This document shows positions 30,355 through 54,600 of a stretch of DNA of 64,000 nt, in pieces; within the stretch, counting starts at the first letter, position 1; each line of letters begins with the position of its first letter. Origin of the DNA: Gammaproteobacteria bacterium (GTDB taxonomy: Bacteria > Pseudomonadota > Gammaproteobacteria > Eutrophobiales > Eutrophobiaceae); the NCBI GenBank assembly GCA_003250975.1, contig QKIY01000009.1, positions 30,727 through 94,726 on the forward strand, written 5' to 3'. Made by a program: the position numbers and the translations under genes. Under the pieces are notes generated by a model. It was not told where the DNA came from. It was given only the letters and a program-made list of their open reading frames with translations, and made no database searches.

Positions 30355-30930
30355 ATGTCCGGTTTTCTGCTAATCCTGCTCAGTACCGTACTTGCAAATA
30401 ATATTATTCTTCAACAGCTGGTCGGTGCAGACCCTGCGCTCGCGCTTGAGCGTAAACTGCAACTTGCTGTTGATGTCTCAATCACGCTTGTGGTGCTGTT
30501 GCCGCTGGTTAGCCTGGCCTGCAGTTTCATTGACGTGTTCCTGCTGGCGCCCTTGCAACTGGACTATCTGCGCCTGCTGGTATTCATATTGACTATCCTT
30601 ATTATCTGCCTCTCATTGAAATATACCATCCGGCTGATCCTGCCGCGCCTGTCTGCAAGGATGGATGACCTGTTGCCGTTTGTCGGCATCAATACCACTG
30701 TCCTCGGAATGGTATTGCTGGGCCGGGAGGCAGCGACAGACCTGGTTCATGCACTGGCGTACGGACTGGGTACCGCAACAGGCTTCGCCTTGGTCCTCTT
30801 GCCGCTCACGGCCGTGAGCGAACGGCTAGACGAGGCCGATGTCCCTGCCCCTTTCAGGGGCCTCCCGCTCCAGTTGATCAGCTTGGCCATTGTCTCCCTC
30901 GCCTTTCAGGGTTTTACCGGGATGTTTTAA
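30355..30930 (+). CDS. rnfA: Rnf/Rsx electron-transport complex subunit A homolog. It is atypical because the conserved Cys residues are absent.
   Basis: The 191-aa, 6-TM protein is collinear with RsxA/RnfA and shares ...ADVPAPFRG.... The family GLCP motif is replaced by GADP. The TNCAVLG motif is replaced by INTTVLG. The gene starts 10 bp after the metG stop. Confidence 0.75.
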   Translation: MSGFLLILLSTVLANNIILQQLVGADPALALERKLQLAVDVSITLVVLLPLVSLACSFIDVFLLAPLQLDYLRLLVFILTILIICLSLKYTIRLILPRLSARMDDLLPFVGINTTVLGMVLLGREAATDLVHALAYGLGTATGFALVLLPLTAVSERLDEADVPAPFRGLPLQLISLAIVSLAFQGFTGMF

Positions 30931-41289: not shown

Positions 41290-41379
<90 letters not shown>

Positions 41380-43946: not shown

Positions 43947-46451
43947 TTAGTCTTTTTTATCCAACTGTGATTCAATATCTGAAAACAGGTTTTTTGTAGC
44001 ATTTTCAGCTTCTCTTTTTGCGGCCTCAGCCCTTTCCTTGATACGTTTAACATGTTCCGAATGTGATATCACCCTTGACGCACTTCGTTCCAGTCTATCC
44101 TGCTCATCCATAAACATGGCGAGATCTTCTTCTACCTGCCTTCCGAGATCATCGTTTTTCAACTGCTGAACCTCTATCTCCTGACGTCTGATCTGTTCTG
44201 CGGTCTGCACATTAACCTTGGCCTGATGTGCATTTTCCAGGTTCTTTTCAGCCTGCCTCAACTTGTATTCAGCCATCCTCATCTGATCTTCAGCTTCTTT
44301 CCTGGCCTTTTCATCAAGGGCATCGGCCTGTGCAGCACGAAGTTTTTGTGCTTCAAGGGCCGCTGCAGCCTTGGCTGCTTCAGCTTCCCTTTTGGTCCTT
44401 TCTATGTCATTCAGAACTTCCTTTATCTTGCTGGATTCCTTTTCCAGCTGCTTCTTTTCATGTTCAAGCCTTGCACGTTCCTTGGCTCTTTCTTCTTCAA
44501 ACTGCTTTTTATATTCATCTATAATGCTTTTTGCTTCTTCTGCTGCTGCCTTGCGTGCTGCTTCAGCCATGGCATTTTTCTTGTTAGCCTCTTCCAGCTC
44601 GGCATTTGCTTTAGCTACTTCCTCGGCGAGTGTACGTCTTTCTGCCTCAAGCTTGGCCTTTGCCTTGGCCTGGGCCTCCTTTTCCATATTAGCCTGCTCT
44701 TCACGTTTCCTGCTGGCCTCTTCTTCCAGGGCCTTATGCGATTCTTCAAGTTTCTTTTTAACCTCATCGGCACTCTGTAATTTTTCCCTGGCCTCGGCAG
44801 CTTCCTGTTCAAGCTTTTCCCGCTCCTTCCTTATTTGCTCCTCAGCCTCCTGCTTCATTTTTTGGAGCTTCTCCATCTCCTCGGTATTCTTGGAATAAAT
44901 CTCCTCCAGTTTCTTCTTTTCGTCGGCAAGACGTTTTTCCGTTTCTTCCTTTAATTTTGCAATCTTTCGGGCTTCTTCTTCCTTGAACCTTCTGGCCTCT
45001 TCTTCGGCTGCTTTCTTTTCAATCTCGAGTTTTTTTCTCTCATCTTCCAGTTCCTGTTTCTTGCGCCTTATATCAGTTGTATCCTCATCGTCCCTGGCTT
45101 CGGCCAGCCTATGACTAGTGTCCTCGAGCTTCAATTCATTCTTGGCAATGTCCGCATCGATCACGGCTGAACGTACTGCCGGATCATCATTATCCTCTGA
45201 TTCAAATACAGGAGCCCGTTGTGTTCTGCGTTTTGGCTTGCCTTCCTTTGAGGATGGTTCCGGGCGTGTGGTTTTTGCCGGAGCCGGCCTGTCTTTTTTC
45301 AGAGTAGGTGCTTCTGCCTTCGCTGGAGTCAGTTTTTCTTTTTTCGGTGCAGTCGCTTCTGCCTCTGAACCCAGTGACGGTATCGAAGCCAATCCGCCTT
45401 TTAGGACGCTGACATTAAATCCGTTATTAATCAGGGTGAAAGCAGCAGCTGAACTGCGACCACCTGAATCACAGCAGATAATATATTGTTTGTTCTTATC
45501 CAGTTTATCCAGCTGCGCCCGCAACATGTTAAATGGAATATTGATGCTGCCCTTAATACTGGATTCCTTAAATTCATCTTTAAAACGGACATCAAGCCAG
45601 ACTGCACCAGCTTCCACCAAGGTCTTGCCCTGATCATAAGTGACTTCGCTCATTGAAGGTATTTTTACCAGTGTGATGAAGTTTTCCTTGCTGAGCTTCA
45701 TCAAGATACCATCGGTCTTCATAATGACAGACGCATTGCGTTTACCCCCCATCAGCAACGCTTCTTCACCAAAACTGTCACCAGGAGACAAATCAGCAAG
45801 CTTGACCGGCTTGGAACCGGGGGATGGTATTCTGGAAACTTCACACTGGCCATCCTGAATAATGTAATAACTGTCACCGGGATCGCCCTGCTTGATTACC
45901 GTATTACCTGCCTTGAATTCCAGGGGCTCAAGCATGACAAATAATTGCTGGATATTGGCGGTTGGCAACTGGCTGAAGATTTCGGATTGCAACATCTTGG
46001 TCATCCAGTCGACCGCATCATCTTCATCCCCGATTTCGCTGACTTCAAAATGTCGACTGGCGGTTATAGTTGTACTATCCGACTTGTCTGCAACAATTGT
46101 CCTGTCGACAGCAGCCTTATCCAGTTGGAGAACCATGCAGTCTTCCACGGCCCTGGCGGTAAACTGGCGTGGCAAAAGGCGAGCCATGGCATAGCGTGCA
46201 CTGTCTGTACCTCCTGTAATGGTACTTTTCACTTCCCTGTTCGAAAGCATTTCGATCACGCCCTCTAGCAGGTAATACGTAAAATTGTCTCTGTCTCCCT
46301 GTTTAAAGACGACGTTCCTTTTCCCGTACTTGAACACCTTCCCCATCTGGATAATCTCGTTCTGGGCCTGGGTAGACAGCTCATCGAACGGCACCAAGGT
46401 CCTTATCAGTTCAACATACGGTTTTTTGTCTAGTTCTTTATTAAAGATCAT
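43947..46451 (-). CDS. Large multidomain protein with two cyclic-nucleotide-binding (CAP-family) domains, a rhodanese domain and a ~450-aa K/E-rich coiled-coil tail.
   Basis: The first CNB domain is degenerate (residues ~30-150). The second is canonical, with GDSFGEEALLMGGKRNASVIMK. The rhodanese domain has an active-site Cys in ICCDSGGRS. From ~aa 380 to the end the sequence is low-complexity, charged and heptad-like (EEARRFKEEEARKIAKLKEETEKRLADEKKKLEE...). Confidence 0.7.
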   Translation of the reverse strand: MIFNKELDKKPYVELIRTLVPFDELSTQAQNEIIQMGKVFKYGKRNVVFKQGDRDNFTYYLLEGVIEMLSNREVKSTITGGTDSARYAMARLLPRQFTARAVEDCMVLQLDKAAVDRTIVADKSDSTTITASRHFEVSEIGDEDDAVDWMTKMLQSEIFSQLPTANIQQLFVMLEPLEFKAGNTVIKQGDPGDSYYIIQDGQCEVSRIPSPGSKPVKLADLSPGDSFGEEALLMGGKRNASVIMKTDGILMKLSKENFITLVKIPSMSEVTYDQGKTLVEAGAVWLDVRFKDEFKESSIKGSINIPFNMLRAQLDKLDKNKQYIICCDSGGRSSAAAFTLINNGFNVSVLKGGLASIPSLGSEAEATAPKKEKLTPAKAEAPTLKKDRPAPAKTTRPEPSSKEGKPKRRTQRAPVFESEDNDDPAVRSAVIDADIAKNELKLEDTSHRLAEARDDEDTTDIRRKKQELEDERKKLEIEKKAAEEEARRFKEEEARKIAKLKEETEKRLADEKKKLEEIYSKNTEEMEKLQKMKQEAEEQIRKEREKLEQEAAEAREKLQSADEVKKKLEESHKALEEEASRKREEQANMEKEAQAKAKAKLEAERRTLAEEVAKANAELEEANKKNAMAEAARKAAAEEAKSIIDEYKKQFEEERAKERARLEHEKKQLEKESSKIKEVLNDIERTKREAEAAKAAAALEAQKLRAAQADALDEKARKEAEDQMRMAEYKLRQAEKNLENAHQAKVNVQTAEQIRRQEIEVQQLKNDDLGRQVEEDLAMFMDEQDRLERSASRVISHSEHVKRIKERAEAAKREAENATKNLFSDIESQLDKKD
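43950..45314. repeat. Low-complexity GAA/AAG-rich coding repeat region (the K/E-rich coiled coil) within the 834-aa CDS.
   Basis: Purine-rich codon runs on the coding strand produce many long spurious antisense ORFs (44226-45858). Confidence 0.5.
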
Positions 46452-46568: not shown

Positions 46569-47255
46569 ATGAATCAATTAACACAATTAATAGCGGAACT
46601 GGGCATGGGCATTGGCTTAGCGGCAATTGTCCCGGCCCTGCTTGGCCTAGTTCTCATAGTCGCCGCCCTGAAACGCCTCAGACACCGGAAACTATTCTCC
46701 GCCGGTTTTAACGGGACACTGGGTCTCTGCCTGTTATTCAGCGCGGTAATCTTGCTTCTTGTTGCAATAAATATTCATACATATCAGAGACTTACATATG
46801 AAGAGCCCATACTGACGATCAGTTTTCAACAACTTGCCGAGAAACAATATACAGCGACCTTAGACTACGCTAACGGCCAGAAACAACACTACAGCCTGAC
46901 CGGTGATGAATGGCAGATTGATGCAAGGGTCATTAACTGGTCACCTCCGGCAAGAATTTTGGGACTTAATGCACTCTACCGCCTAGAGAGGCTGCATGGC
47001 CGTTATCGATCCATCGATCAGGAGCGGCAATTGGAAAGAACAGTCTATCCACTGTCGGAGGAGCGCGGCCTAGACATCTGGTCACTGGCAAAAAAGTATC
47101 AGGACCGCGTGTCATGGATAGACACATATTTTGGCAGCGCGACCTACCTGCCAATGGAAGACGGCGCCACTTACGAGGTATTAATCACTCAGAACGGTCT
47201 GATTGCCAGACCAGTGAATACAGCCGCCAAAACAAAACTGCACCAATGGAAATAG
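46569..47255 (+). CDS. Hypothetical membrane protein (two N-terminal TM helices plus a soluble domain).
   Basis: The 228-aa protein has no family I recognise. It is convergent with the sensor kinase of the sortase locus, with a 22-bp gap. Confidence 0.5.
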   Translation: MNQLTQLIAELGMGIGLAAIVPALLGLVLIVAALKRLRHRKLFSAGFNGTLGLCLLFSAVILLLVAINIHTYQRLTYEEPILTISFQQLAEKQYTATLDYANGQKQHYSLTGDEWQIDARVINWSPPARILGLNALYRLERLHGRYRSIDQERQLERTVYPLSEERGLDIWSLAKKYQDRVSWIDTYFGSATYLPMEDGATYEVLITQNGLIARPVNTAAKTKLHQWK

Positions 47256-47277: not shown

Positions 47278-49383
47278 TTACTGCCTGAAATTGATCCTGA
47301 AACACACACCGCTGGAATCGGCAAGGTTTTCCGCAATAATTGTTCCATTATGAAACTCGGCAATAATCCTAGCGATATAAAGCCCGAGGCCGAGATGCGG
47401 GCTGCCTTTCCTGTCCTTGTCACGGACAGATACCATCGAATTGAACAGTTCCCCCTTCATCTCTTCGGGTAAGAGCGGCCCCCGGTTGACAATACTGATG
47501 AAACTGTCAGCTCCATCAGTGTGCAAGGAAATAATAACTGGCTTGTCCGGCACACTGAAATCGACTGCATTTGAAACCAGCTTGTCGATCATCTGCATAA
47601 ACAGATCCGGCGCAATATTCATTACATGTTTGATCGGGGGGAGATTCAGTTCAAACGGGTGTGGTGCATAGGCAAGGCGGTAACCGTCAATAGCCTGGGT
47701 CAACAGCTCACAAATATTAACCCTTACTTTTTCTGTCCCCTGCAGTGCCTGCTCCAGCCGTGCAGCTTCACTCAGACGGGTAACCAGGGTATTCAGGCGT
47801 TGAATACCATCCCGCGCCCGTTCGATATAGACCTGTTTGTCCGTTTCAATATCTGAATCCAGATTGTCCAGAGATGATTGCACTACTGCCATGGGTGTAC
47901 GCAACTCATGCGAAAGTTTCCCCGCCATTCCTTCAAGATAATGGTTATATTGCCTGAGCCTTTCCAGGATTGCGGCGTAGTTACGAGACAGATCACCAAT
48001 TTCATCACTGGCCTGACTCACCGGCATATCGCCCACCACTCGGCCATACTCATCTATCGCGGTGGCCGCTTCTCTGCTTAAACGCCTCAATCTCACAGAC
48101 AACCTGCTGGCGAAGAAAAGCAGCAGTAGAGTTATTATAAAAAACAGTAGCAAGGTCCTGTTAACTAGGCCAACCAGAGCATCACGTTGCAATAACTGGA
48201 TATTATTGGTTGTTTCCTCGGCCACAACTACGCCCCTGATCTCATCAAACACCCATACAGGAGCGGCGGCGGACACGATGACAGCCTTTTTATCAGGCGA
48301 TGATCGCCAGCGAGAACCGGCATTGCCCCTGAGTGCCGATCTGATCTCCTCGCCGTATAACCGGGAGGCGCCTGCGAGATCATCTTTGAACCGGTCAGTT
48401 ACCGGAGGCAACACCAGTTTATAAAAGAGGTTGAGGGGGTGTTTTTTAAAATCCTGCTTCAGGCTGCCGGAATTGGCAAGCACCTGCCCCCTGCTGTCCA
48501 GTACCCAGATCCTCCTGCCCGGACTGCTGTGCAGGCGAGTAATCAAAGTTTCCAGATAATTATCCGGCAGTATGACCCGCCCGGGACGGTTCAGGGTGTT
48601 TTTTCCGGCAGTACCAGTGTAATGGAAATCAATCTGTGTGCCCCTTTTGTCGGTGTCAGCAACCATTATGCCTAGTCGCTCATGTACTAGGTTAAGAGGC
48701 AGGGCAATCTCAAGGTCATACCCTTCTTGGGAGGGCTGCCAGCTGGCAACGATGTTTGTTTTATATCGAATGAATTTCTTTTCGATCCAGTCGACCTCAA
48801 CAGTTTCAATCTGAAATGGATTGAACATCCCCGGCACAGAGGGTGCAAGATAGTAACGTTCCTTCACCACATAATCATCCCCGATAACCAGTATCACGTG
48901 ATCACTGTCAATGATCGTTTCACTGTCAGGCTTATGGTAGATAGTCTGGTCGTCCCTGATACGAAGTAATATATGCAGGGTATTCTCATGGATACCCGCA
49001 ACTAGCCTAAACGCTACTGGTTCCGTAATATTGCCTGCATCGTCGGCAAATGACTGCGGATAAACCTCCGACCAGTCAAGATATTGCACCCAGTCATCCA
49101 GATACCCGTCTGTCTGCATCGGTGTTTCAATCTTGTGTATGAACAGAGTCGGATCTACGGCCGTTTGTCTGTCAGGAAACTGGCGGTAACTCTGATGCAG
49201 GGAGGTGGCAATGGCTTTTGCGGTATCGAGTAATGAGGTCTCGAGGTTGCTCCTCAATCGATACTCCATTTCACGCATGTATTCATAGGCAATATAAGGC
49301 AGGGTTAATATCGCGATGGAGAGCAATAAAAGTTTAACGCGAATTGTAAAGCGGAATCGGGGACGTGTATTAATATCTGCCAT
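47278..49383 (-). CDS. Sensor histidine kinase with a large periplasmic domain, the PdsS-like kinase of the proteobacterial dedicated sortase system.
   Basis: The 701-aa protein has an N-terminal TM segment, a ~370-aa periplasmic region, a second TM segment, HisKA (SHELRTPM) and a HATPase_c domain. It lies immediately downstream of the OmpR-type regulator in the same operon. Confidence 0.7.
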   Translation of the reverse strand: MADINTRPRFRFTIRVKLLLLSIAILTLPYIAYEYMREMEYRLRSNLETSLLDTAKAIATSLHQSYRQFPDRQTAVDPTLFIHKIETPMQTDGYLDDWVQYLDWSEVYPQSFADDAGNITEPVAFRLVAGIHENTLHILLRIRDDQTIYHKPDSETIIDSDHVILVIGDDYVVKERYYLAPSVPGMFNPFQIETVEVDWIEKKFIRYKTNIVASWQPSQEGYDLEIALPLNLVHERLGIMVADTDKRGTQIDFHYTGTAGKNTLNRPGRVILPDNYLETLITRLHSSPGRRIWVLDSRGQVLANSGSLKQDFKKHPLNLFYKLVLPPVTDRFKDDLAGASRLYGEEIRSALRGNAGSRWRSSPDKKAVIVSAAAPVWVFDEIRGVVVAEETTNNIQLLQRDALVGLVNRTLLLFFIITLLLLFFASRLSVRLRRLSREAATAIDEYGRVVGDMPVSQASDEIGDLSRNYAAILERLRQYNHYLEGMAGKLSHELRTPMAVVQSSLDNLDSDIETDKQVYIERARDGIQRLNTLVTRLSEAARLEQALQGTEKVRVNICELLTQAIDGYRLAYAPHPFELNLPPIKHVMNIAPDLFMQMIDKLVSNAVDFSVPDKPVIISLHTDGADSFISIVNRGPLLPEEMKGELFNSMVSVRDKDRKGSPHLGLGLYIARIIAEFHNGTIIAENLADSSGVCFRINFRQ

Positions 49384-49414
49384 CTTGATTAGTCCTGCTG
49401 ATCAGTTACTTTTA

Positions 49415-50104
49415 TCAGGCATTCCAGCGGTAACCCAGACCATAGACCGTCTCGATGCAGTCAAAATCCTGATCAACAGCGATAAACTTTTTCCTGATCC
49501 TCTTTATATGTGATGTGACTGTCCCTTCATCCACAAAGATTCTTGCTTCACTCATCAATTGCTCCCTGCTCTTCACATGACCCGGTCTGCTGGCAAGGGA
49601 ACAGATGATCCAGAATTCTGTCAATGTCAGGTCAATTTTCCTGTTCTGCCATTCAGCCAGCAGACGGTTTTTATCTATCAAGAGGTTTCCGTGGTGAATA
49701 ATGTCTTCAGCCGGGACTGGGCTACGCAATGCATCAACCCTTCTGAACAAGGCAGCAATCCTGGCCAGCAATTGCGGCAAGGTTATGTCCTTGGTCAGAT
49801 AATCATCTGCGCCGAGCCTGAGACCCGAGATTGTATCCAGGTCAGAGTCCCTCGCTGTGAGAAATATAATCGGAACTGTCTGCGAAAGAACCCGTAGCTC
49901 ACGACAGAGATCAAATCCTCCCTCGTTCTCCTCACCCAGGCCAATATCTATTAGCACCAGGTCAGGCAGGCTCGACTTGAAGTGCCTTAATGCATCCTGT
50001 CGGCTGGAAAAGCTACTCACCCTGTATCCCTGTTTGACCAGGGCATCTGAATAGTTTTCCCGGATAGCTTTTTCGTCTTCAACCAGCGCTACAGTTTTAA
50101 CCAT
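49415..50104 (-). CDS. OmpR/PhoB-family response regulator (PdsR-like).
   Basis: The protein has REC (VALVEDEKAIR...DLVLIDIGL) plus a winged-helix trans_reg_C domain (LTLTEFWIICSLASRPGHVKSREQLM...GLGYRW). The start was taken at the ATG with a GAGGA RBS (MVKTVALVEDE); the ORF track begins 5 codons upstream. Confidence 0.75.
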   Translation of the reverse strand: MVKTVALVEDEKAIRENYSDALVKQGYRVSSFSSRQDALRHFKSSLPDLVLIDIGLGEENEGGFDLCRELRVLSQTVPIIFLTARDSDLDTISGLRLGADDYLTKDITLPQLLARIAALFRRVDALRSPVPAEDIIHHGNLLIDKNRLLAEWQNRKIDLTLTEFWIICSLASRPGHVKSREQLMSEARIFVDEGTVTSHIKRIRKKFIAVDQDFDCIETVYGLGYRWNA

Positions 50105-50291
50105 GCTACATCCTCGCATTACCCCGCTGCCAATTTATAACATTATCAGGGAAAAATATTCCCCCCGCGAACAATTACCATAATTTCGCCATATTTCATC
50201 GTTTCATTTCCCTTTTTTCAGCGCAGTTCCGCCACTGAGAGACGCTTAAATATATCGCTGTAACCCACTTGATTAATACAGGAGAACTGAA

Positions 50292-50999
50292 ATGAAACAT
50301 ACATTCATAACCCTTGCCCTGGTAAGCCTTTTTGCCAGCTCATCCAGCATGGCAGATGAACAGTCAACCCGGGCCATACACGAGACCGCCGGTTTCGGTA
50401 CCGGTGCACTGATAGGCGGACTTATCGCCGGGCCTCCGGGGATTGTCCTTGGTGCCATTGGCGGGACGATTTATGGAAATCGCCAAGGCGAAAAAGAAAA
50501 CCATGTTACCGCAGTAGAAACAAAACTTCAGGACAGGGAAATTGAGCTGGCTCTGGTGAAAAATGAACTTTCACAGACCCGGACTGAATACGCCCGCAAA
50601 TTACAAAAAGCAGCCCTGGGGGACCGGCGTGCCCCGTTGGATAAACTGTCCGATGGTGTGTCCTTATCCGTCTACTTCCGCACCAACGAGAGCATGGTTG
50701 ACGCCGGGTTGAAACCACACCTGCAAAAGCTTGTCACGCTTATCAAGGACATACCGGAAATATCGATCAGCCTGAATGCCTATGCCGATCAACGAGGAGA
50801 CGACTCACATAACCTTGAGTTGAGCCGTGCACGCGCTCATGCAGTTGAGGCCGAACTTATTGAGGCGGGACTGCCCGGCAATCGCATCTACCGGCATGCA
50901 CATGGTGAAAGTAACGCCAAAGCGGCTGAGGGTGATATCGAAGGCTACATCTTTGACCGTCGCGTGGACATTGAACTCACTCTGGATACGGAAGTGTAA
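50292..50999 (+). CDS. OmpA-family protein (PdsO-like component of the dedicated sortase system).
   Basis: The protein has a signal peptide and a glycine-zipper segment (GFGTGALIGGLIAGPPGIVLGAIGGTIYG). The C-terminal OmpA-like peptidoglycan-binding domain has NAYADQRGDDSHNLELSRARA. Confidence 0.7.
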   Translation: MKHTFITLALVSLFASSSSMADEQSTRAIHETAGFGTGALIGGLIAGPPGIVLGAIGGTIYGNRQGEKENHVTAVETKLQDREIELALVKNELSQTRTEYARKLQKAALGDRRAPLDKLSDGVSLSVYFRTNESMVDAGLKPHLQKLVTLIKDIPEISISLNAYADQRGDDSHNLELSRARAHAVEAELIEAGLPGNRIYRHAHGESNAKAAEGDIEGYIFDRRVDIELTLDTEV

Positions 51000-51025
51000 A
51001 CATCAACCGAGCGGAACAAGCCGAT

Positions 51026-53149
51026 ATGAAGATCAATAAAACACACCTGCTGGCGAATACTGTGCTGTGTATCCTGGAGAGTCTCCTTGCAGCGATTATA
51101 GGCACTGTATTTCTGGTGTTGCTTGTCCTGTTGCTGTCAGGCGTCGCCAGCGCCGAAACCACGGAAGGTTTGGCTGCAACGGACATCATCACTGTGCGTG
51201 ACGCCGGGGAAGTCACACGCGGTACCCTGTTATTCCGACACTCAGAAAATTTCCGCAGCGCCCCGATCCTAGAAACCGGGGTCCAGATGGATATCACGGG
51301 GATGATTGTCCGTGTCAGGGTGCGGCAACGCTTTCACAACCCTGACACGGTCTGGCAGGAAGGGATCTACGTATTCCCACTACCGGAAGATGCCGCAGTG
51401 GATCATCTGCGCATGCAGATCGGCGAGCGTGTGATTGAAGGACAAATCAGGGAAAAAGAAACTGCAAGGAAAGAATATCAGCAGGCGCGCGACAGCGGTA
51501 AAAAGGCCAGCCTGGTAGAACAGGAACGTCCGAATATCTTCACCACCTCGGTGGCAAATATCGCACCGGAGGAAGAGATCACGGTAGAGATCGAGTACCA
51601 GCAGACAGTACGTTATGACTCGGGTGAATTTCGCCTGCGTTTCCCGATGGTCGTGGCACCACGCTATATCCCTGGCAAGACAGTTATAAAAGGGTTCAGC
51701 GGCACTGGCTGGGCGGTCAACACGGATCAGGTCGAGGATGCGGCCCGCATCACTCCCCCTGTCCTGTATCCCGACGAGAGGTTAATCAATCCCGTGATGA
51801 TCAGGATAAAACTCAATGCAGGATTCCCGCTGGAACAGATCACCAGTTCCTACCACAACATCCTGATCGATCAAATCGACTCTTCTACGTACAACATTCA
51901 ATTGGAGCAACAGACCATGGCAGATCGCGACTTTGAACTTTACTGGCTGCCTGAATCGAAAGACGCACCCCAGGCCGCCTTCTTCAGGGAACATCAGAAA
52001 AGCAGGGATTACGGACTGATCATGATGCTCCCACCAATGCAAGAGCGTGCCGAGACCCTGAACCGCGAGGTGATCTTTGTTATAGATACCTCAGGTTCAA
52101 TGGCAGGCACTTCCATCGTGCAAGCCAAGGCGGCCCTGGTTCTGGCACTCGAACGTCTGAAACCGGGTGACAGTTTCAATATCATTGAATTCAATTCAAA
52201 CACCAGCCAATTATTCAACTGGCCCCACCCGTTCAATCACCAGTCATTGCGGCAAGCAAAAGAATATGTGCGTCGTTTACAGGCAGATGGCGGTACCGAG
52301 ATGTTACCAGCCCTGGATTTGGCACTGACAGATAACAATGATCGTTCAGCGGTCAGACAGGTGATCTTTCTCACCGACGGCAGCATCGGCAATGAGAATG
52401 CCCTGTTTCGAACCATCAGCCGGAAACTGGGCAGGAGTCGCTTGTTCACCATCGGTATTGGCTCCGCGCCTAATTCACACTTCATGACCCGCGCCGCCCG
52501 ATTCGGACGCGGAACCTATACGTACATCGGCGATGTGAATGAAGTGCAGGAAAAAATGGCCACCCTGTTCAGTAAACTGGAAAGTCCGGTACTTACCGAC
52601 ATCCAGATAGACTGGCAAGGCGCCGATAATGTTGAAGCCTGGCCGCAAAAGATCCCGGACCTCTACCTGGGCGAACCACTGCTGGTCAGTGTCGCGTCCA
52701 CTACTCTACCGGAAAAAATAAATATCTCTGGCGTCGTCTCCGGTGCGCTCTGGCAAAGCACCATGCAACTCGACGGCCATGGTCAGCATGACGGGGTCCA
52801 TGTCCTCTGGGCGCGCAAGAAGATTGCAGCGCTCATGGATAACCTTAACCAGGTCTCGGAAAAAAATTCCCTGCGGCAGGAGATCATTGATACCGCCCTT
52901 CGCCATCATCTGGTAAGCCGCTTCACCAGTCTGGTCGCCATTGATGTTACGACGGCGAGAGATAAAGGCGTTCCGTTCCACTCTTCTGCCTTGCCAGTCA
53001 ACCTTCCTGAAGGATGGAAATATGAAAAGGTGTTCGGCCAGTTGCCACGCACAGCAACCGATGCCGAGCAGAAAATACTGATCGGGCTGTTGCTATTGTT
53101 GTTCAGTGTGTTCCTCGTACTGGGCCGCCACTATGTCTTACCCGACTAA
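51026..53149 (+). CDS. Sortase target protein of the marine-proteobacterial type, with VIT and von Willebrand factor A domains and a C-terminal LPxTG-like sorting signal.
   Basis: The 707-aa protein has a signal peptide, a VIT domain, and a vWA domain with the MIDAS motif (DTSGSM). The C-terminus is ...GQLPRTATDAEQKILIGLLLLLFSVFLVLGRHYVLPD: LPRTAT, then a hydrophobic TM segment, then a charged tail. Confidence 0.75.
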   Translation: MKINKTHLLANTVLCILESLLAAIIGTVFLVLLVLLLSGVASAETTEGLAATDIITVRDAGEVTRGTLLFRHSENFRSAPILETGVQMDITGMIVRVRVRQRFHNPDTVWQEGIYVFPLPEDAAVDHLRMQIGERVIEGQIREKETARKEYQQARDSGKKASLVEQERPNIFTTSVANIAPEEEITVEIEYQQTVRYDSGEFRLRFPMVVAPRYIPGKTVIKGFSGTGWAVNTDQVEDAARITPPVLYPDERLINPVMIRIKLNAGFPLEQITSSYHNILIDQIDSSTYNIQLEQQTMADRDFELYWLPESKDAPQAAFFREHQKSRDYGLIMMLPPMQERAETLNREVIFVIDTSGSMAGTSIVQAKAALVLALERLKPGDSFNIIEFNSNTSQLFNWPHPFNHQSLRQAKEYVRRLQADGGTEMLPALDLALTDNNDRSAVRQVIFLTDGSIGNENALFRTISRKLGRSRLFTIGIGSAPNSHFMTRAARFGRGTYTYIGDVNEVQEKMATLFSKLESPVLTDIQIDWQGADNVEAWPQKIPDLYLGEPLLVSVASTTLPEKINISGVVSGALWQSTMQLDGHGQHDGVHVLWARKKIAALMDNLNQVSEKNSLRQEIIDTALRHHLVSRFTSLVAIDVTTARDKGVPFHSSALPVNLPEGWKYEKVFGQLPRTATDAEQKILIGLLLLLFSVFLVLGRHYVLPD

Positions 53150-53759
53150 AAAAATGCTGTACCTCTGTTTACTCACCACCCTCTCCTTTTGCGGCTTGTG
53201 GCAGATGGGACAGGGCACCTATATCCACGCCAAGGCAATCCTCGCGCAATACCTCCTCGAGTCGGCCTGGTCAGAAACACTGCTGGGGGTAAAGAAGGAG
53301 GTGAAACCATGGCCCTGGGCAGATACCTGGCCAGTCAGCCGGCTCACCGCACTCCGCCTTGGAATCAGCCGCATCGTCCTGGCCGGGGCAAGTGGTTCAT
53401 CACTTGCCTTCGGCCCAGGACATCTTTTTGGCACAGCCTATCCAGGTGAACAGGGTAATAGTGTAATTGCTGGGCACAGGGATACACATTTCCGGTTTTT
53501 ACAACAGCTGACAGACGGCGACATCCTGCAACTTGAGACGGAAGACGGAACCAACAGGCAATACCAGGTTATCCAGACTCGGGTTATTCACGAGAGCGAG
53601 GTGCAATATCTGCAAGAAACACCTGATAACCGATTAACACTGATTACCTGTTTCCCCTTTAACAGCCCCACTCCGGGCGGACCTCTGCGCTTCGTGGTAA
53701 TCGCCATGGAGCTACCAAGGACCGCAAATGGTACTCACACACATGATTCATTGATCTGA
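53133..53759 (+). CDS. Sortase of the class found in the proteobacterial dedicated sortase system.
   Basis: The protein has a catalytic His (VIAGHRDTHF), the catalytic Cys in TLITCFPF and a conserved Arg (LRFVVIAM). The start was taken at the ATG overlapping the target-gene end; the ORF-track start is an upstream GTG. Confidence 0.8.
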   Translation: MSYPTKKMLYLCLLTTLSFCGLWQMGQGTYIHAKAILAQYLLESAWSETLLGVKKEVKPWPWADTWPVSRLTALRLGISRIVLAGASGSSLAFGPGHLFGTAYPGEQGNSVIAGHRDTHFRFLQQLTDGDILQLETEDGTNRQYQVIQTRVIHESEVQYLQETPDNRLTLITCFPFNSPTPGGPLRFVVIAMELPRTANGTHTHDSLI

Positions 53760-53808: not shown

Positions 53809-54600
53809 ATGGAAACAATCGGCGTTAATTTCCTGATTAATTTTGCAACAGCCTTGGCCATTCTGGTTATCGGTTGGTGGGTCGCGAAACTGGTCCGCAA
53901 ACTAATCGTCAATATCATGGAAAGCAAAGATATTGATGCCTTGCTGGTGTCATTCACAAGTAACGTGTCCTATATTGCCCTGCTGGCCTTTGTCATTATC
54001 GCCGCTCTCGGTGAACTCGGCGTGCAGACAACTTCTTTTGTGGCTATTATCGGTGCGGCCGGTCTGGCGATTGGTCTTTCATTGCAGGGATCACTGTCCA
54101 ATTTCGCCTCAGGTATCATGATTATCTTCTTTCGCCCCTTCAAGGTCGGCGATTTTATCGAAGCCGGCGGCGTCAGCGGTATAGTGGAAGGCATACAAAT
54201 CTTTTCAACCCAGATGCGCACAGGTGATAACAAGGCGATCATCGTCCCGAATTCCAGTATTACCGGCGGCAATATCACCAACTATTCTGCCAAGGACACA
54301 CGCCGTATTGATCTGGTATTCGGCATTGGCTACGGCGACGATATCAAATCGGCAAAACAAATTCTGGAAGCAATCATCGCGCAGGACGAACGCATCCTGA
54401 AAGACCCTGCCCCCATCGTTGCCGTCTCGGAACTCGGTGAGAGCAGTGTTAACTTTGTTGTCCGCCCCTGGGTAAAGACTGAAGACTACTGGGATGTCTA
54501 CTGGGACCTGACGGAAAAGGTTAAATTGAGATTCGATGCGGAAGGCATCAGTATACCGTTCCCGCAACGTGATGTGCATGTCCACCAGGTGGCCGCCTGA
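53809..54600 (+). CDS. Small-conductance mechanosensitive channel (MscS family).
   Basis: The protein has three TM helices and an MscS beta-domain. An AAAGGAG RBS is present. Confidence 0.85.
   Translation: METIGVNFLINFATALAILVIGWWVAKLVRKLIVNIMESKDIDALLVSFTSNVSYIALLAFVIIAALGELGVQTTSFVAIIGAAGLAIGLSLQGSLSNFASGIMIIFFRPFKVGDFIEAGGVSGIVEGIQIFSTQMRTGDNKAIIVPNSSITGGNITNYSAKDTRRIDLVFGIGYGDDIKSAKQILEAIIAQDERILKDPAPIVAVSELGESSVNFVVRPWVKTEDYWDVYWDLTEKVKLRFDAEGISIPFPQRDVHVHQVAA

Follow-up and report, generated by a model that had tools for sequence, protein, structure and literature searches.

A proteobacterial dedicated sortase locus in an uncultured gammaproteobacterium, with a candidate operator and a possible peptidoglycan acceptor

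A stretch of 64,000 nucleotides from an uncultured gammaproteobacterium of the Eutrophobiaceae (assembly GCA_003250975.1, contig QKIY01000009.1, positions 30,727 to 94,726; hereafter the window) carries, at 47278-53759, what is very probably a complete chromosomal proteobacterial dedicated sortase (Pds) system, functional to all appearances. The locus is built of two divergent operons, pdsR-pdsS on the minus strand and pdsO-target-sortase on the plus strand, with a 172-bp control region between pdsR and the pdsO-like gene common to both. A five-part Pds locus had been proposed here from the sequence, and all five open reading frames (ORFs) of that original prediction were reproduced to the base and are intact:

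47278-49383, minus strand: pdsS, sensor histidine kinase of 701 aa (ORF list; TIGR03785; Pfam HisKA and HATPase_c; hydropathy)
49415-50119, minus strand: pdsR, OmpR/PhoB-type response regulator of 234 aa (TIGR03787; Pfam Response_reg and Trans_reg_C)
50292-50999, plus strand: pdsO-like gene, 235 aa (TIGR03789 best match, below its cut-off; Pfam OmpA)
51026-53149, plus strand: sortase target with VIT and vWA domains, 707 aa (TIGR03788; Pfam VIT and VWA)
53133-53759, plus strand: class GN sortase, 208 aa from ATG 53133 (TIGR03784; Pfam Sortase)
53106-53759, plus strand: maximal ORF of the sortase, 217 aa from GTG 53106 (six-frame ORF list)

The identity of the five proteins was assessed by searching the proteins of the window against NCBIfam, each bit score being set against the curated equivalog cut-off, with Pfam run alongside. 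Four proteins exceed the cut-off of their Pds family: PdsS by a narrow margin (TIGR03785, 622.4 against 612.2 bits, model positions 1-701 of 703), PdsR (TIGR03787, 367.5 against 335.7 bits), the target (TIGR03788, 820.6 against 551.65 bits) and the sortase (TIGR03784, class GN, 'marine proteobacterial', 220.3 against 158.25 bits, model positions 3-174 of 174). The OmpA-like protein has the PdsO family, TIGR03789, as its top match at 137.1 bits, under the 152.2 cut-off. All five matches span the full model length, and Pfam is concordant for all domains of the five proteins. The statement that every part of the system is present is thus borne out by score for four families and falls short for the fifth; it also describes a five-gene variant and no universal need, since PdsO is missing from about 30% of otherwise canonical loci.

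The arrangement is widely conserved. When one genome per GTDB species was scanned, 105 relatives came up and 80 of them were retained, nearly all being metagenome-assembled genomes (MAGs) of Gammaproteobacteria; the best sortase relative is 75% identical. Synteny was counted in the 53 species-level loci whose sequence reaches 6.8 kb or more upstream of the sortase. Within these, the target is present in 48, the regulator and the kinase in 49 each and PdsO in 33; all five genes occur in 31 loci, a further 13 have four genes and no PdsO, and 44 show the canonical order and orientation. The Pds genes are therefore clustered and not scattered in related genomes, as a dedicated system had led one to expect, and because 44 of 53 hold the same order and orientation a chance juxtaposition is not viable. 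Given that 13 of the 44 syntenic loci do without it, PdsO is, as judged from gene content, dispensable. Four other loci (L070, L071, L072 and L076), three of them labelled Alphaproteobacteria (Parvibaculum, Rhodobiaceae), have target and sortase with no adjacent PdsS/PdsR pair, and their motif reads ALPQT[AS]TDA.

The system itself is already known: it is covered by curated hidden Markov models, its NCBI relatives are automatically annotated as "class GN sortase", and it is common in environmental bacteria. Pairs of a Gram-negative sortase and a single substrate were noted by Comfort and Clubb, as they are cited in PMC8225981. The family numbers at least 521 clusters at 50% identity (E<=1e-30) and, when clustered at 90% identity (E<=1e-20), no fewer than 7,996, so that the description of Gram-negative sortase systems as rare was overstated. 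The further remark, that comparative genomics is the sole source of description for such systems, needs slight updating: beyond mentions in comparative genomics, the searchable literature yielded a study of pdsS in Shewanella algae (PMC11580497), and no biochemistry of class GN sortases. In that species a recurrent PdsS G547W allele, selected by β-lactams, is associated with carbapenem resistance (PMC11580497). The same allele is associated with higher expression of pdsS (4.8-fold), pdsR (18.2-fold), the sortase (126-fold), the target (388-fold) and pdsO (799-fold) (PMC11580497), and control of all five genes by PdsS activity is supported by this literature.

The catalytic residues of the sortase are intact. 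Its TLxTC motif, as originally called, reads TLITC (aa 178-182 of the 217-aa ORF, whose numbering is used throughout), and alignment of the 217-aa protein recovers the His/Cys/Arg triad at His124, Cys182 and Arg195, invariant in 76 of 76 class GN relatives. These residues align to H120, C184 and R197 of Staphylococcus aureus SrtA. The corresponding codons are:

53475-53477, plus strand: catalytic His (alignment)
53649-53651, plus strand: catalytic Cys (alignment)
53688-53690, plus strand: catalytic Arg (alignment)

The best solved-sequence match is 2ln7, the catalytic domain of Bacillus anthracis SrtD, with a HMMER alignment that spans the GHRDT, TC.PF and R motifs. An AlphaFold2 model of the sortase (predicted local distance difference test score 74.2 and predicted template modelling score 0.69, from a 24-sequence alignment) gave 110 Foldseek matches in the PDB at E <= 0.001, and the best 50 of these 110 are all sortases. 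The structural class could not be read from the fold: classes A, C, D and E score about equally (template modelling score of about 0.5-0.7), and Foldseek was set aside for this purpose as not discriminating.

Among sequence models outside its own family, those of class D give the sortase its highest score (80 bits), ahead of class E (56), class C (53) and class F (33); the class D cut-offs are missed, at 80.3 against 165 bits for NF033746 and 80.2 against 140 for NF058671 ('SrtD, LPxTATN-specific'). By its sequence, the enzyme resembles class D without being a member. Two further elements are invariant or nearly so in the 76 class GN sortases and have no counterpart in S. aureus SrtA: a Trp/Pro-rich segment, PWPWADTWP (aa 68-76), before the first β-strand, and a helix with the pattern K-A-x2-A-Q-x-L-x4-W (aa 43-55) after the membrane segment. 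They may form a class-specific site for substrate or acceptor.

The sortase gene was said to start within the end of the target gene. The overlap is real; the start proposed for it, GTG 53106, is not favoured. In 24 of 72 loci an in-frame start codon for the sortase (ATG in 23, GTG in one) falls precisely 17 nt short of where the target gene ends, and in the window a 17-nt overlap corresponds to ATG 53133 and a protein of 208 aa, the exact form found in public NCBI and JGI gene calls. Because of this recurrent overlap and these gene calls, ATG 53133 is most likely the start and GTG 53106 is disfavoured. The overlap implies translational coupling of the sortase to its target. At one locus (L021, 7886-10585) target and sortase form one ORF of 899 aa, which is either a true fusion or the product of a frameshift or misassembly where the 17-nt overlap normally lies.

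The target, which begins 26 nt past the end of the OmpA-like gene, has a signal peptide (aa ~1-43), a VIT domain (83-191), a vWA domain (348-506) and then a C-terminal region. Its metal ion-dependent adhesion site (MIDAS) is complete (D354-x-S356-x-S358, T424 and D451), with residues at least 95% conserved in 63 orthologues, and the closest solved sequences are the VIT-vWA region of PARP4 (9.5e-35), ITIH4 (2.4e-25) and ITIH1 (5.7e-17). As predicted, the protein ends in a sorting signal, in which a conserved motif is followed by a transmembrane helix and a short basic tail:

53042-53146, plus strand: tripartite sorting signal, made up of LPRTAT (53042-53059, aa 673-678), a hydrophobic helix (aa 684-700) and the tail RHYVLPD

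The C-terminus as a whole reads KVFGQ-LPRTAT-DAEQK-ILIGLLLLLFSVFLVLG-RHYVLPD. Some 65 orthologues have in common KVFGq[LFMY]PxTAT[DNP]A, then a hydrophobic stretch and then a basic tail, and P674, T676, A677, T678 and A680 are at least 95% conserved across the target orthologues. When the tails of the window's ORFs were scanned with a regular expression, that of the target was the only true sorting-signal-like one; a match at 30355-30930 was rejected as a further substrate, being a false positive in a polytopic membrane protein.

The PdsO-like protein comprises a signal peptide (aa ~1-21), a glycine zipper (34-62), a coiled coil and an OmpA-like peptidoglycan-binding domain (~123-231). Position, zipper and OmpA-like domain are kept with 37 syntenic orthologues, and the C-terminal domains of OprF and YiaD are its closest solved sequences. 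The zipper motif, GxGxGAxIGGLIAGPPGxxxGAxGG, is strongly conserved: across 38 PdsO orthologues its glycines reach at least 90% conservation, as do D166, R168 and R181, and the OmpA-like domain retains the conserved Asp/Arg motif. No lysine reaches 90% conservation in the same 38 sequences.

The original reading of the two-component pair as a periplasmic-sensing histidine kinase and an OmpR-type regulator agrees with the family scores given above and with topology. Hydropathy places two hydrophobic segments around some 370 periplasmic residues of PdsS, giving the layout TM1 (first transmembrane segment, aa ~12-34), periplasmic region (~35-400), TM2 (~401-432), HisKA (486-545) and HATPase_c (592-699). 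For PdsR an alternative start at 50104 would give 229 aa, and both variants occur in public gene calls. Two domains are predicted in the periplasmic region of the kinase:

48607-49149, minus strand: periplasmic β-sandwich, predicted to be CBM9/DOMON-like (kinase aa ~79-259)
48211-48582, minus strand: membrane-proximal PDC/Cache-like domain, predicted (kinase aa ~268-391)

A relaxed Pfam scan of PdsS orthologues gave weak but mutually consistent matches: CBM9_1 was matched by 8 of 16 (best 3.9e-4), Cache_WalK by 5 of 16 (best 2.9e-5) and dCache_1 by 6 of 16; the PdsS of the window is itself below threshold for the CBM9 and Cache models in Pfam and does not reach the gathering score of PF06452. 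The sensor is accordingly predicted to combine a CBM9-like β-sandwich with a Cache domain of the WalK/CitA type, a combination which suggests a glycan or cell-wall-derived ligand.

Shorter PdsS variants that lack the CBM9-like sandwich occur mostly in MAGs of Betaproteobacteria type (L056, L068, L069, L035, L052 and L057); the one in L056 has 554 aa and the others cover about 58% of the window kinase. In L056 (7282-10771), L068 and L069 the sortase comes straight after the regulator and no VIT-vWA target adjoins them; the gene that follows in L056 lies on the other strand, and its 551-aa product by eye resembles an outer-membrane β-barrel. One 541-aa MAG protein annotated as rhodanese-like (P0017) combines the rhodanese and HisKA domains of Pfam. 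Its match to the periplasmic query of PdsS covers 24% of that query at 63% identity, and the gene call may be a chimera or fusion of the neighbouring rhodanese protein with PdsS.

The 172-bp control region contains TGCCAYATTT repeats phased at 11 bp, which we propose as the candidate operator of PdsR. The whole candidate operator extends over 50178-50235, with CCATAATTTCG-CCATATTTCAT at 50178-50197, and its elements are:

50178-50211, plus strand: distal part of the candidate PdsR operator, direct repeats phased at 11 bp, CCATAATTTCG / CCATATTTCAT / CGTTTCATTTCC
50231-50235, plus strand: proximal GCCAC half-site, upstream of pdsO (aligned consensus)
50245-50252, plus strand: -10-like element CTTAAATA, upstream of pdsO (aligned consensus)

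Two strong half-sites thus lie 11 bp apart, followed by a third, weaker one and then by the proximal half-site, which sits 44 bp, or 4 x 11, further downstream than the second distal repeat and abuts the conserved -10-like element. The pattern CCAYATTTCNNCCAYATTTC has one match in the 64 kb of the window (2 mismatches), against 0.25 expected by chance. At up to 3 mismatches it is found on the strand of pdsO (+) in 24 of 50 homologous intergenic regions and on the reverse strand in none of the 50, while shuffled sequences differ from it by a mean of 7.3 mismatches. The consensus of 31 non-redundant intergenic regions reads ATTgCCAT.TTTTTGCCAcATTTcATC..c.caTttCC, about 19 nt, ctGCCAttT, about 8 nt, and CTTtAATA, and the repeat motif is kept in loci with and without PdsO. 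The assignment to PdsR is made because regulators of the OmpR/PhoB family bind such direct repeats as head-to-tail dimers. We infer that the -10-like element is part of the promoter of pdsO. A scan for promoters and terminators over 46.4-54.7 kb was uninformative, with fewer promoter-like sites than in shuffled sequence and terminator-like sites at chance level. An RNA element in the pdsO leader was considered and rejected, as Rfam was negative and the short inverted repeats of the intergenic region are unremarkable.

Taken together, these features suggest how the system may operate. PdsS would sense a periplasmic cue, probably a glycan or a cell-wall-derived molecule, through its CBM9-like β-sandwich and Cache domain, and would phosphorylate PdsR, which would bind the repeats as head-to-tail dimers. 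Phosphorylated PdsR would then turn on pdsO, target and sortase as well as its own operon, which fits the S. algae PdsS G547W data. The Sec pathway would export the target, whose C-terminal helix would then hold it in the inner membrane. The sortase, translationally coupled by the 17-nt overlap, would cut between Thr676 and Ala677 to form a thioester on Cys182; in the sorting-motif peptide KVFGQLPRTATDAE the expected cut is between T and A. An amine would resolve the acyl-enzyme; were that amine to belong to peptidoglycan, the VIT-vWA protein would end up covalently tethered to the sacculus in the periplasm. PdsO, a membrane protein that combines a glycine zipper with an OmpA-like domain that binds peptidoglycan, would serve as an accessory that stabilises the envelope and not as the acceptor.

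What, then, might the acceptor be? The peptidoglycan of Gram-negative bacteria contains meso-diaminopimelate (mDAP), and as acceptor we tentatively prefer, by analogy with class D sortases, the ε-amino group of mDAP on lipid II or peptidoglycan. This acceptor is favoured because the enzyme's highest scores outside its own family are with class D, including the 'LPxTATN-specific' model; because the best solved-sequence match is B. anthracis SrtD (2ln7); because the LPxTAT motif of the target matches the class D motif; because SortPred independently assigns proteobacterial sortases to class D (PMC8703055); and because the class D sortase BaSrtC attaches LPNTA substrates to DAP cross-bridges (PMC8225981). 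PdsO is an unlikely acceptor, since 13 of 44 syntenic loci lack it and none of its lysines is conserved.

A number of points weigh against this reading and the mechanism built around it. First, the class D scores are far under the class D cut-offs and the chemistry is carried over by analogy only, and experiments defining the cleavage or the acceptor of any class GN sortase were not found in the searchable literature. Second, the N-terminal membrane helix of the sortase is just moderately hydrophobic, under the 1.6 Kyte-Doolittle threshold, and the basic tail of the sorting signal is weak, with one Arg and one His. Third, the PdsR boxes are assigned on conservation alone, a generic sigma-70 scan found no consensus in the intergenic region, and CBM9/DOMON-like folds bind haem as well as sugars, which leaves the ligand class of PdsS wider. 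Finally, other enzymes serve homologous cargo, in that rhombosortase and exosortase act on VIT-vWA proteins bearing GlyGly-CTERM or PEP-CTERM signals in place of a sortase motif (PMC3237569), and the rhombosortase route ends in a lipid-type modification and surface display with no peptidoglycan linkage (PMC6219818).

This last observation is the starting point of the alternative that survives best, rather unlikely as we judge it to be. Here the sortase would perform a maturation or release step, passing the Thr of the target to an amine-bearing lipid such as phosphatidylethanolamine or to water, and the VIT-vWA protein would cross the outer membrane to act as a metal-dependent surface adhesin. 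The same VIT-vWA family does carry GlyGly-CTERM or PEP-CTERM in other genomes (PMC3237569), and rhombosortase cargo receives a glycerophosphoethanolamine-containing moiety and is displayed at the surface by way of type II secretion (the T2SS) (PMC6219818). The intact MIDAS of the vWA domain would also suit an extracellular adhesin. Against this, there are no secretion-system genes in or beside the conserved locus, enzyme and motif are nearest to the mDAP-directed class D sortases, and the co-regulated partner binds peptidoglycan, which points to the periplasm. No sortase is known to use a lipid amine as acceptor, which leaves the route without precedent among sortases.

A second alternative is that the sortase joins the target to a protein, be it PdsO, through a lysine or the mature N-terminus, or another envelope protein or lipoprotein, to give a covalent heterodimer in which PdsO docks non-covalently on peptidoglycan. 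Class C sortases, which form protein-protein isopeptide bonds, are among the close structural matches of the enzyme. Wherever it is present, pdsO lies immediately upstream of the target gene (by 26 nt in the window), and in S. algae it showed the strongest co-induction, 799-fold (PMC11580497). This reading is improbable all the same, because the 13 canonical loci of 44 that lack PdsO still have the sorting motif and operator of the others, none of the lysines in the 38 PdsO orthologues reaches 90% conservation, a pilin-like motif was not seen and the window PdsO is under the curated family cut-off. As for a decayed or inactive relic, or a chance neighbourhood of such common domains as a two-component system, OmpA, vWA and sortase, the sub-cut-off PdsO, a PdsS just 10 bits over its own cut-off and the weak basic tail might speak for it, and it is effectively refuted by five ORFs of full length against their models, by intact catalytic, MIDAS, peptidoglycan-binding and sorting residues and by an order, orientation, operator and 17-nt overlap kept in dozens of species.

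If the target is indeed joined to mDAP, a broader role can be envisaged, though a doubtful one: a Thr-mDAP bond would tether an ITIH-like, metal-binding VIT-vWA protein to Gram-negative peptidoglycan as an inducible means of envelope repair or reinforcement, triggered through the CBM9-like/Cache sensor of PdsS by exposed glycan or by wall damage such as that caused by β-lactams. Were this true, diderms would possess a sortase-made linkage between protein and peptidoglycan distinct from those made by L,D-transpeptidases (the Braun lipoprotein type). As an entity, the locus is an ordinary case of a long-curated system, one that automatic annotation can recognise, and it leaves existing knowledge unchanged. 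The question behind it, namely what a sortase does in a bacterium with an outer membrane and what signal the kinase receives, is better pursued in cultured carriers such as Shewanella. What is added here is a candidate PdsR operator, a predicted sensor domain of glycan type, the dispensability of PdsO as read from gene content and a likeness to class D and LPxTAT that points to mDAP, details with a bearing on the only phenotype reported to date, tolerance of β-lactams in S. algae.

The surroundings of the locus are ordinary for a chromosome: the flanking genes encode methionyl-tRNA synthetase (MetRS), BipA, an AddAB-like helicase-nuclease, MscS and a Sel1-repeat protein, and G+C over the plus-strand operon is 0.53 against about 0.47-0.50, only a slight rise. 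The gene for the MscS-type channel (53809-54600, plus strand) lies 49 nt downstream of the sortase; in most related genomes this gap is 1.5-3 kb larger, so that the lineage of the window either has no insert there or has lost genes. The sole RNA gene in the window by ARAGORN and Rfam is a tRNA-Ser with anticodon CGA (41290-41379, plus strand), the Rfam scan yielding nothing else. A role in anti-phage defence was rejected, PADLOC giving just generic matches to MotB and a cNMP domain.

On the other side of the locus, two genes adjoin pdsS in about 23-28 of the 80 genome loci. One (46569-47255, plus strand) encodes a 228-aa protein with two N-terminal transmembrane helices and a conserved soluble domain with invariant GDEWQxDAR and YGSATYLPM motifs; it matches no family in Pfam or NCBIfam and has more than 547 metagenome relatives, soil samples among them. 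The other (43947-46451, minus strand) encodes an 834-aa protein with cNMP_binding (Pfam, two stretches), a rhodanese domain and a Lys/Glu-rich coiled-coil tail of about 470 aa, which produces an extreme AT skew of -0.45 to -0.49 at 44000-45500. The two are kept as a pair in the lineage, even without an adjacent Pds gene (L083, L084), and in L082 the pair is present with a PdsS match about 6 kb off. We considered both as extra Pds components and rejected this as lineage synteny, because a PdsS match occurs in 5 of the 37 loci of the 228-aa family with at least 5 kb and is directly adjacent in 4. The 228-aa protein looks like a member of an undescribed and widespread family that is not connected with the Pds system.

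How does the system compare with those already known? The nearest class outside GN by model score is class D of Bacillus (B. anthracis SrtC and SrtD, 2ln7; NF033746, NF058671). The two share an LPxTA(T)-type motif and few, dedicated substrates, and mDAP is available in Gram-negative peptidoglycan too; they differ in that the host of the window is a diderm and the product would be periplasmic. For the PWPWADTWP segment of class GN we know of no class D counterpart. In cargo family, and in the logic of motif, transmembrane helix and basic tail, Pds resembles rhombosortase/GlyGly-CTERM and exosortase/PEP-CTERM, which are likewise often dedicated pairs of one enzyme and one target (PMC3237569). 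The enzymes are nevertheless unrelated, rhombosortase being an intramembrane serine protease, exosortase a polytopic protein and the Pds sortase a cysteine transpeptidase, and the rhombosortase product is lipid-modified and displayed at the surface through the T2SS (PMC6219818). Eukaryotic ITIH1 and ITIH4 and the vault protein PARP4 are the closest solved sequences to the target across the VIT, vWA and C-terminal regions. The heavy chains of ITIH are cleaved near the C-terminus and the new C-terminal residue is covalently joined to a glycan, so that tethering of the C-terminus to a polysaccharide offers an analogy; the ITIH bond is, however, an ester to chondroitin sulphate or hyaluronan, made by other machinery and with no sortase.

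The regulatory half of the locus invites comparison with the envelope-stress systems CreBC, BaeSR, CpxAR and WalKR. After their own families, PdsS scores next best against CreC, ChvG, CpxA and WalK and PdsR against CreB, BaeR and PhoB, and the Cache domain of the PdsS sensor is of the WalK/CitA type. These scores are, however, far under the cut-offs of those families, the periplasmic region of PdsS has an extra CBM9-like β-sandwich inserted, and the regulon, as far as it is visible in the window, is the adjacent sortase operon. The pho box has 11-bp direct repeats with a half-site near the -10 element, and the candidate operator is alike in its 11-bp phasing and in that a -10-like element is preceded, about 10 bp upstream, by one half-site. 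The closest likeness of all is to the Pds systems of Shewanella, Colwellia and their relatives (TIGR03784, TIGR03785, TIGR03787, TIGR03788 and TIGR03789; the subfamily-6 sortases of Comfort and Clubb), with which the window shares the same five families (PdsO by best match), the same divergent layout of response regulator and histidine kinase against pdsO, target and sortase, and a single adjacent VIT-vWA target with an LPxT-type signal served by a TLxTC sortase. It differs from them in its uncultured host, in a closest relative at 75% sortase identity and in a PdsO-like protein below the cut-off, and is otherwise a system of the same kind.

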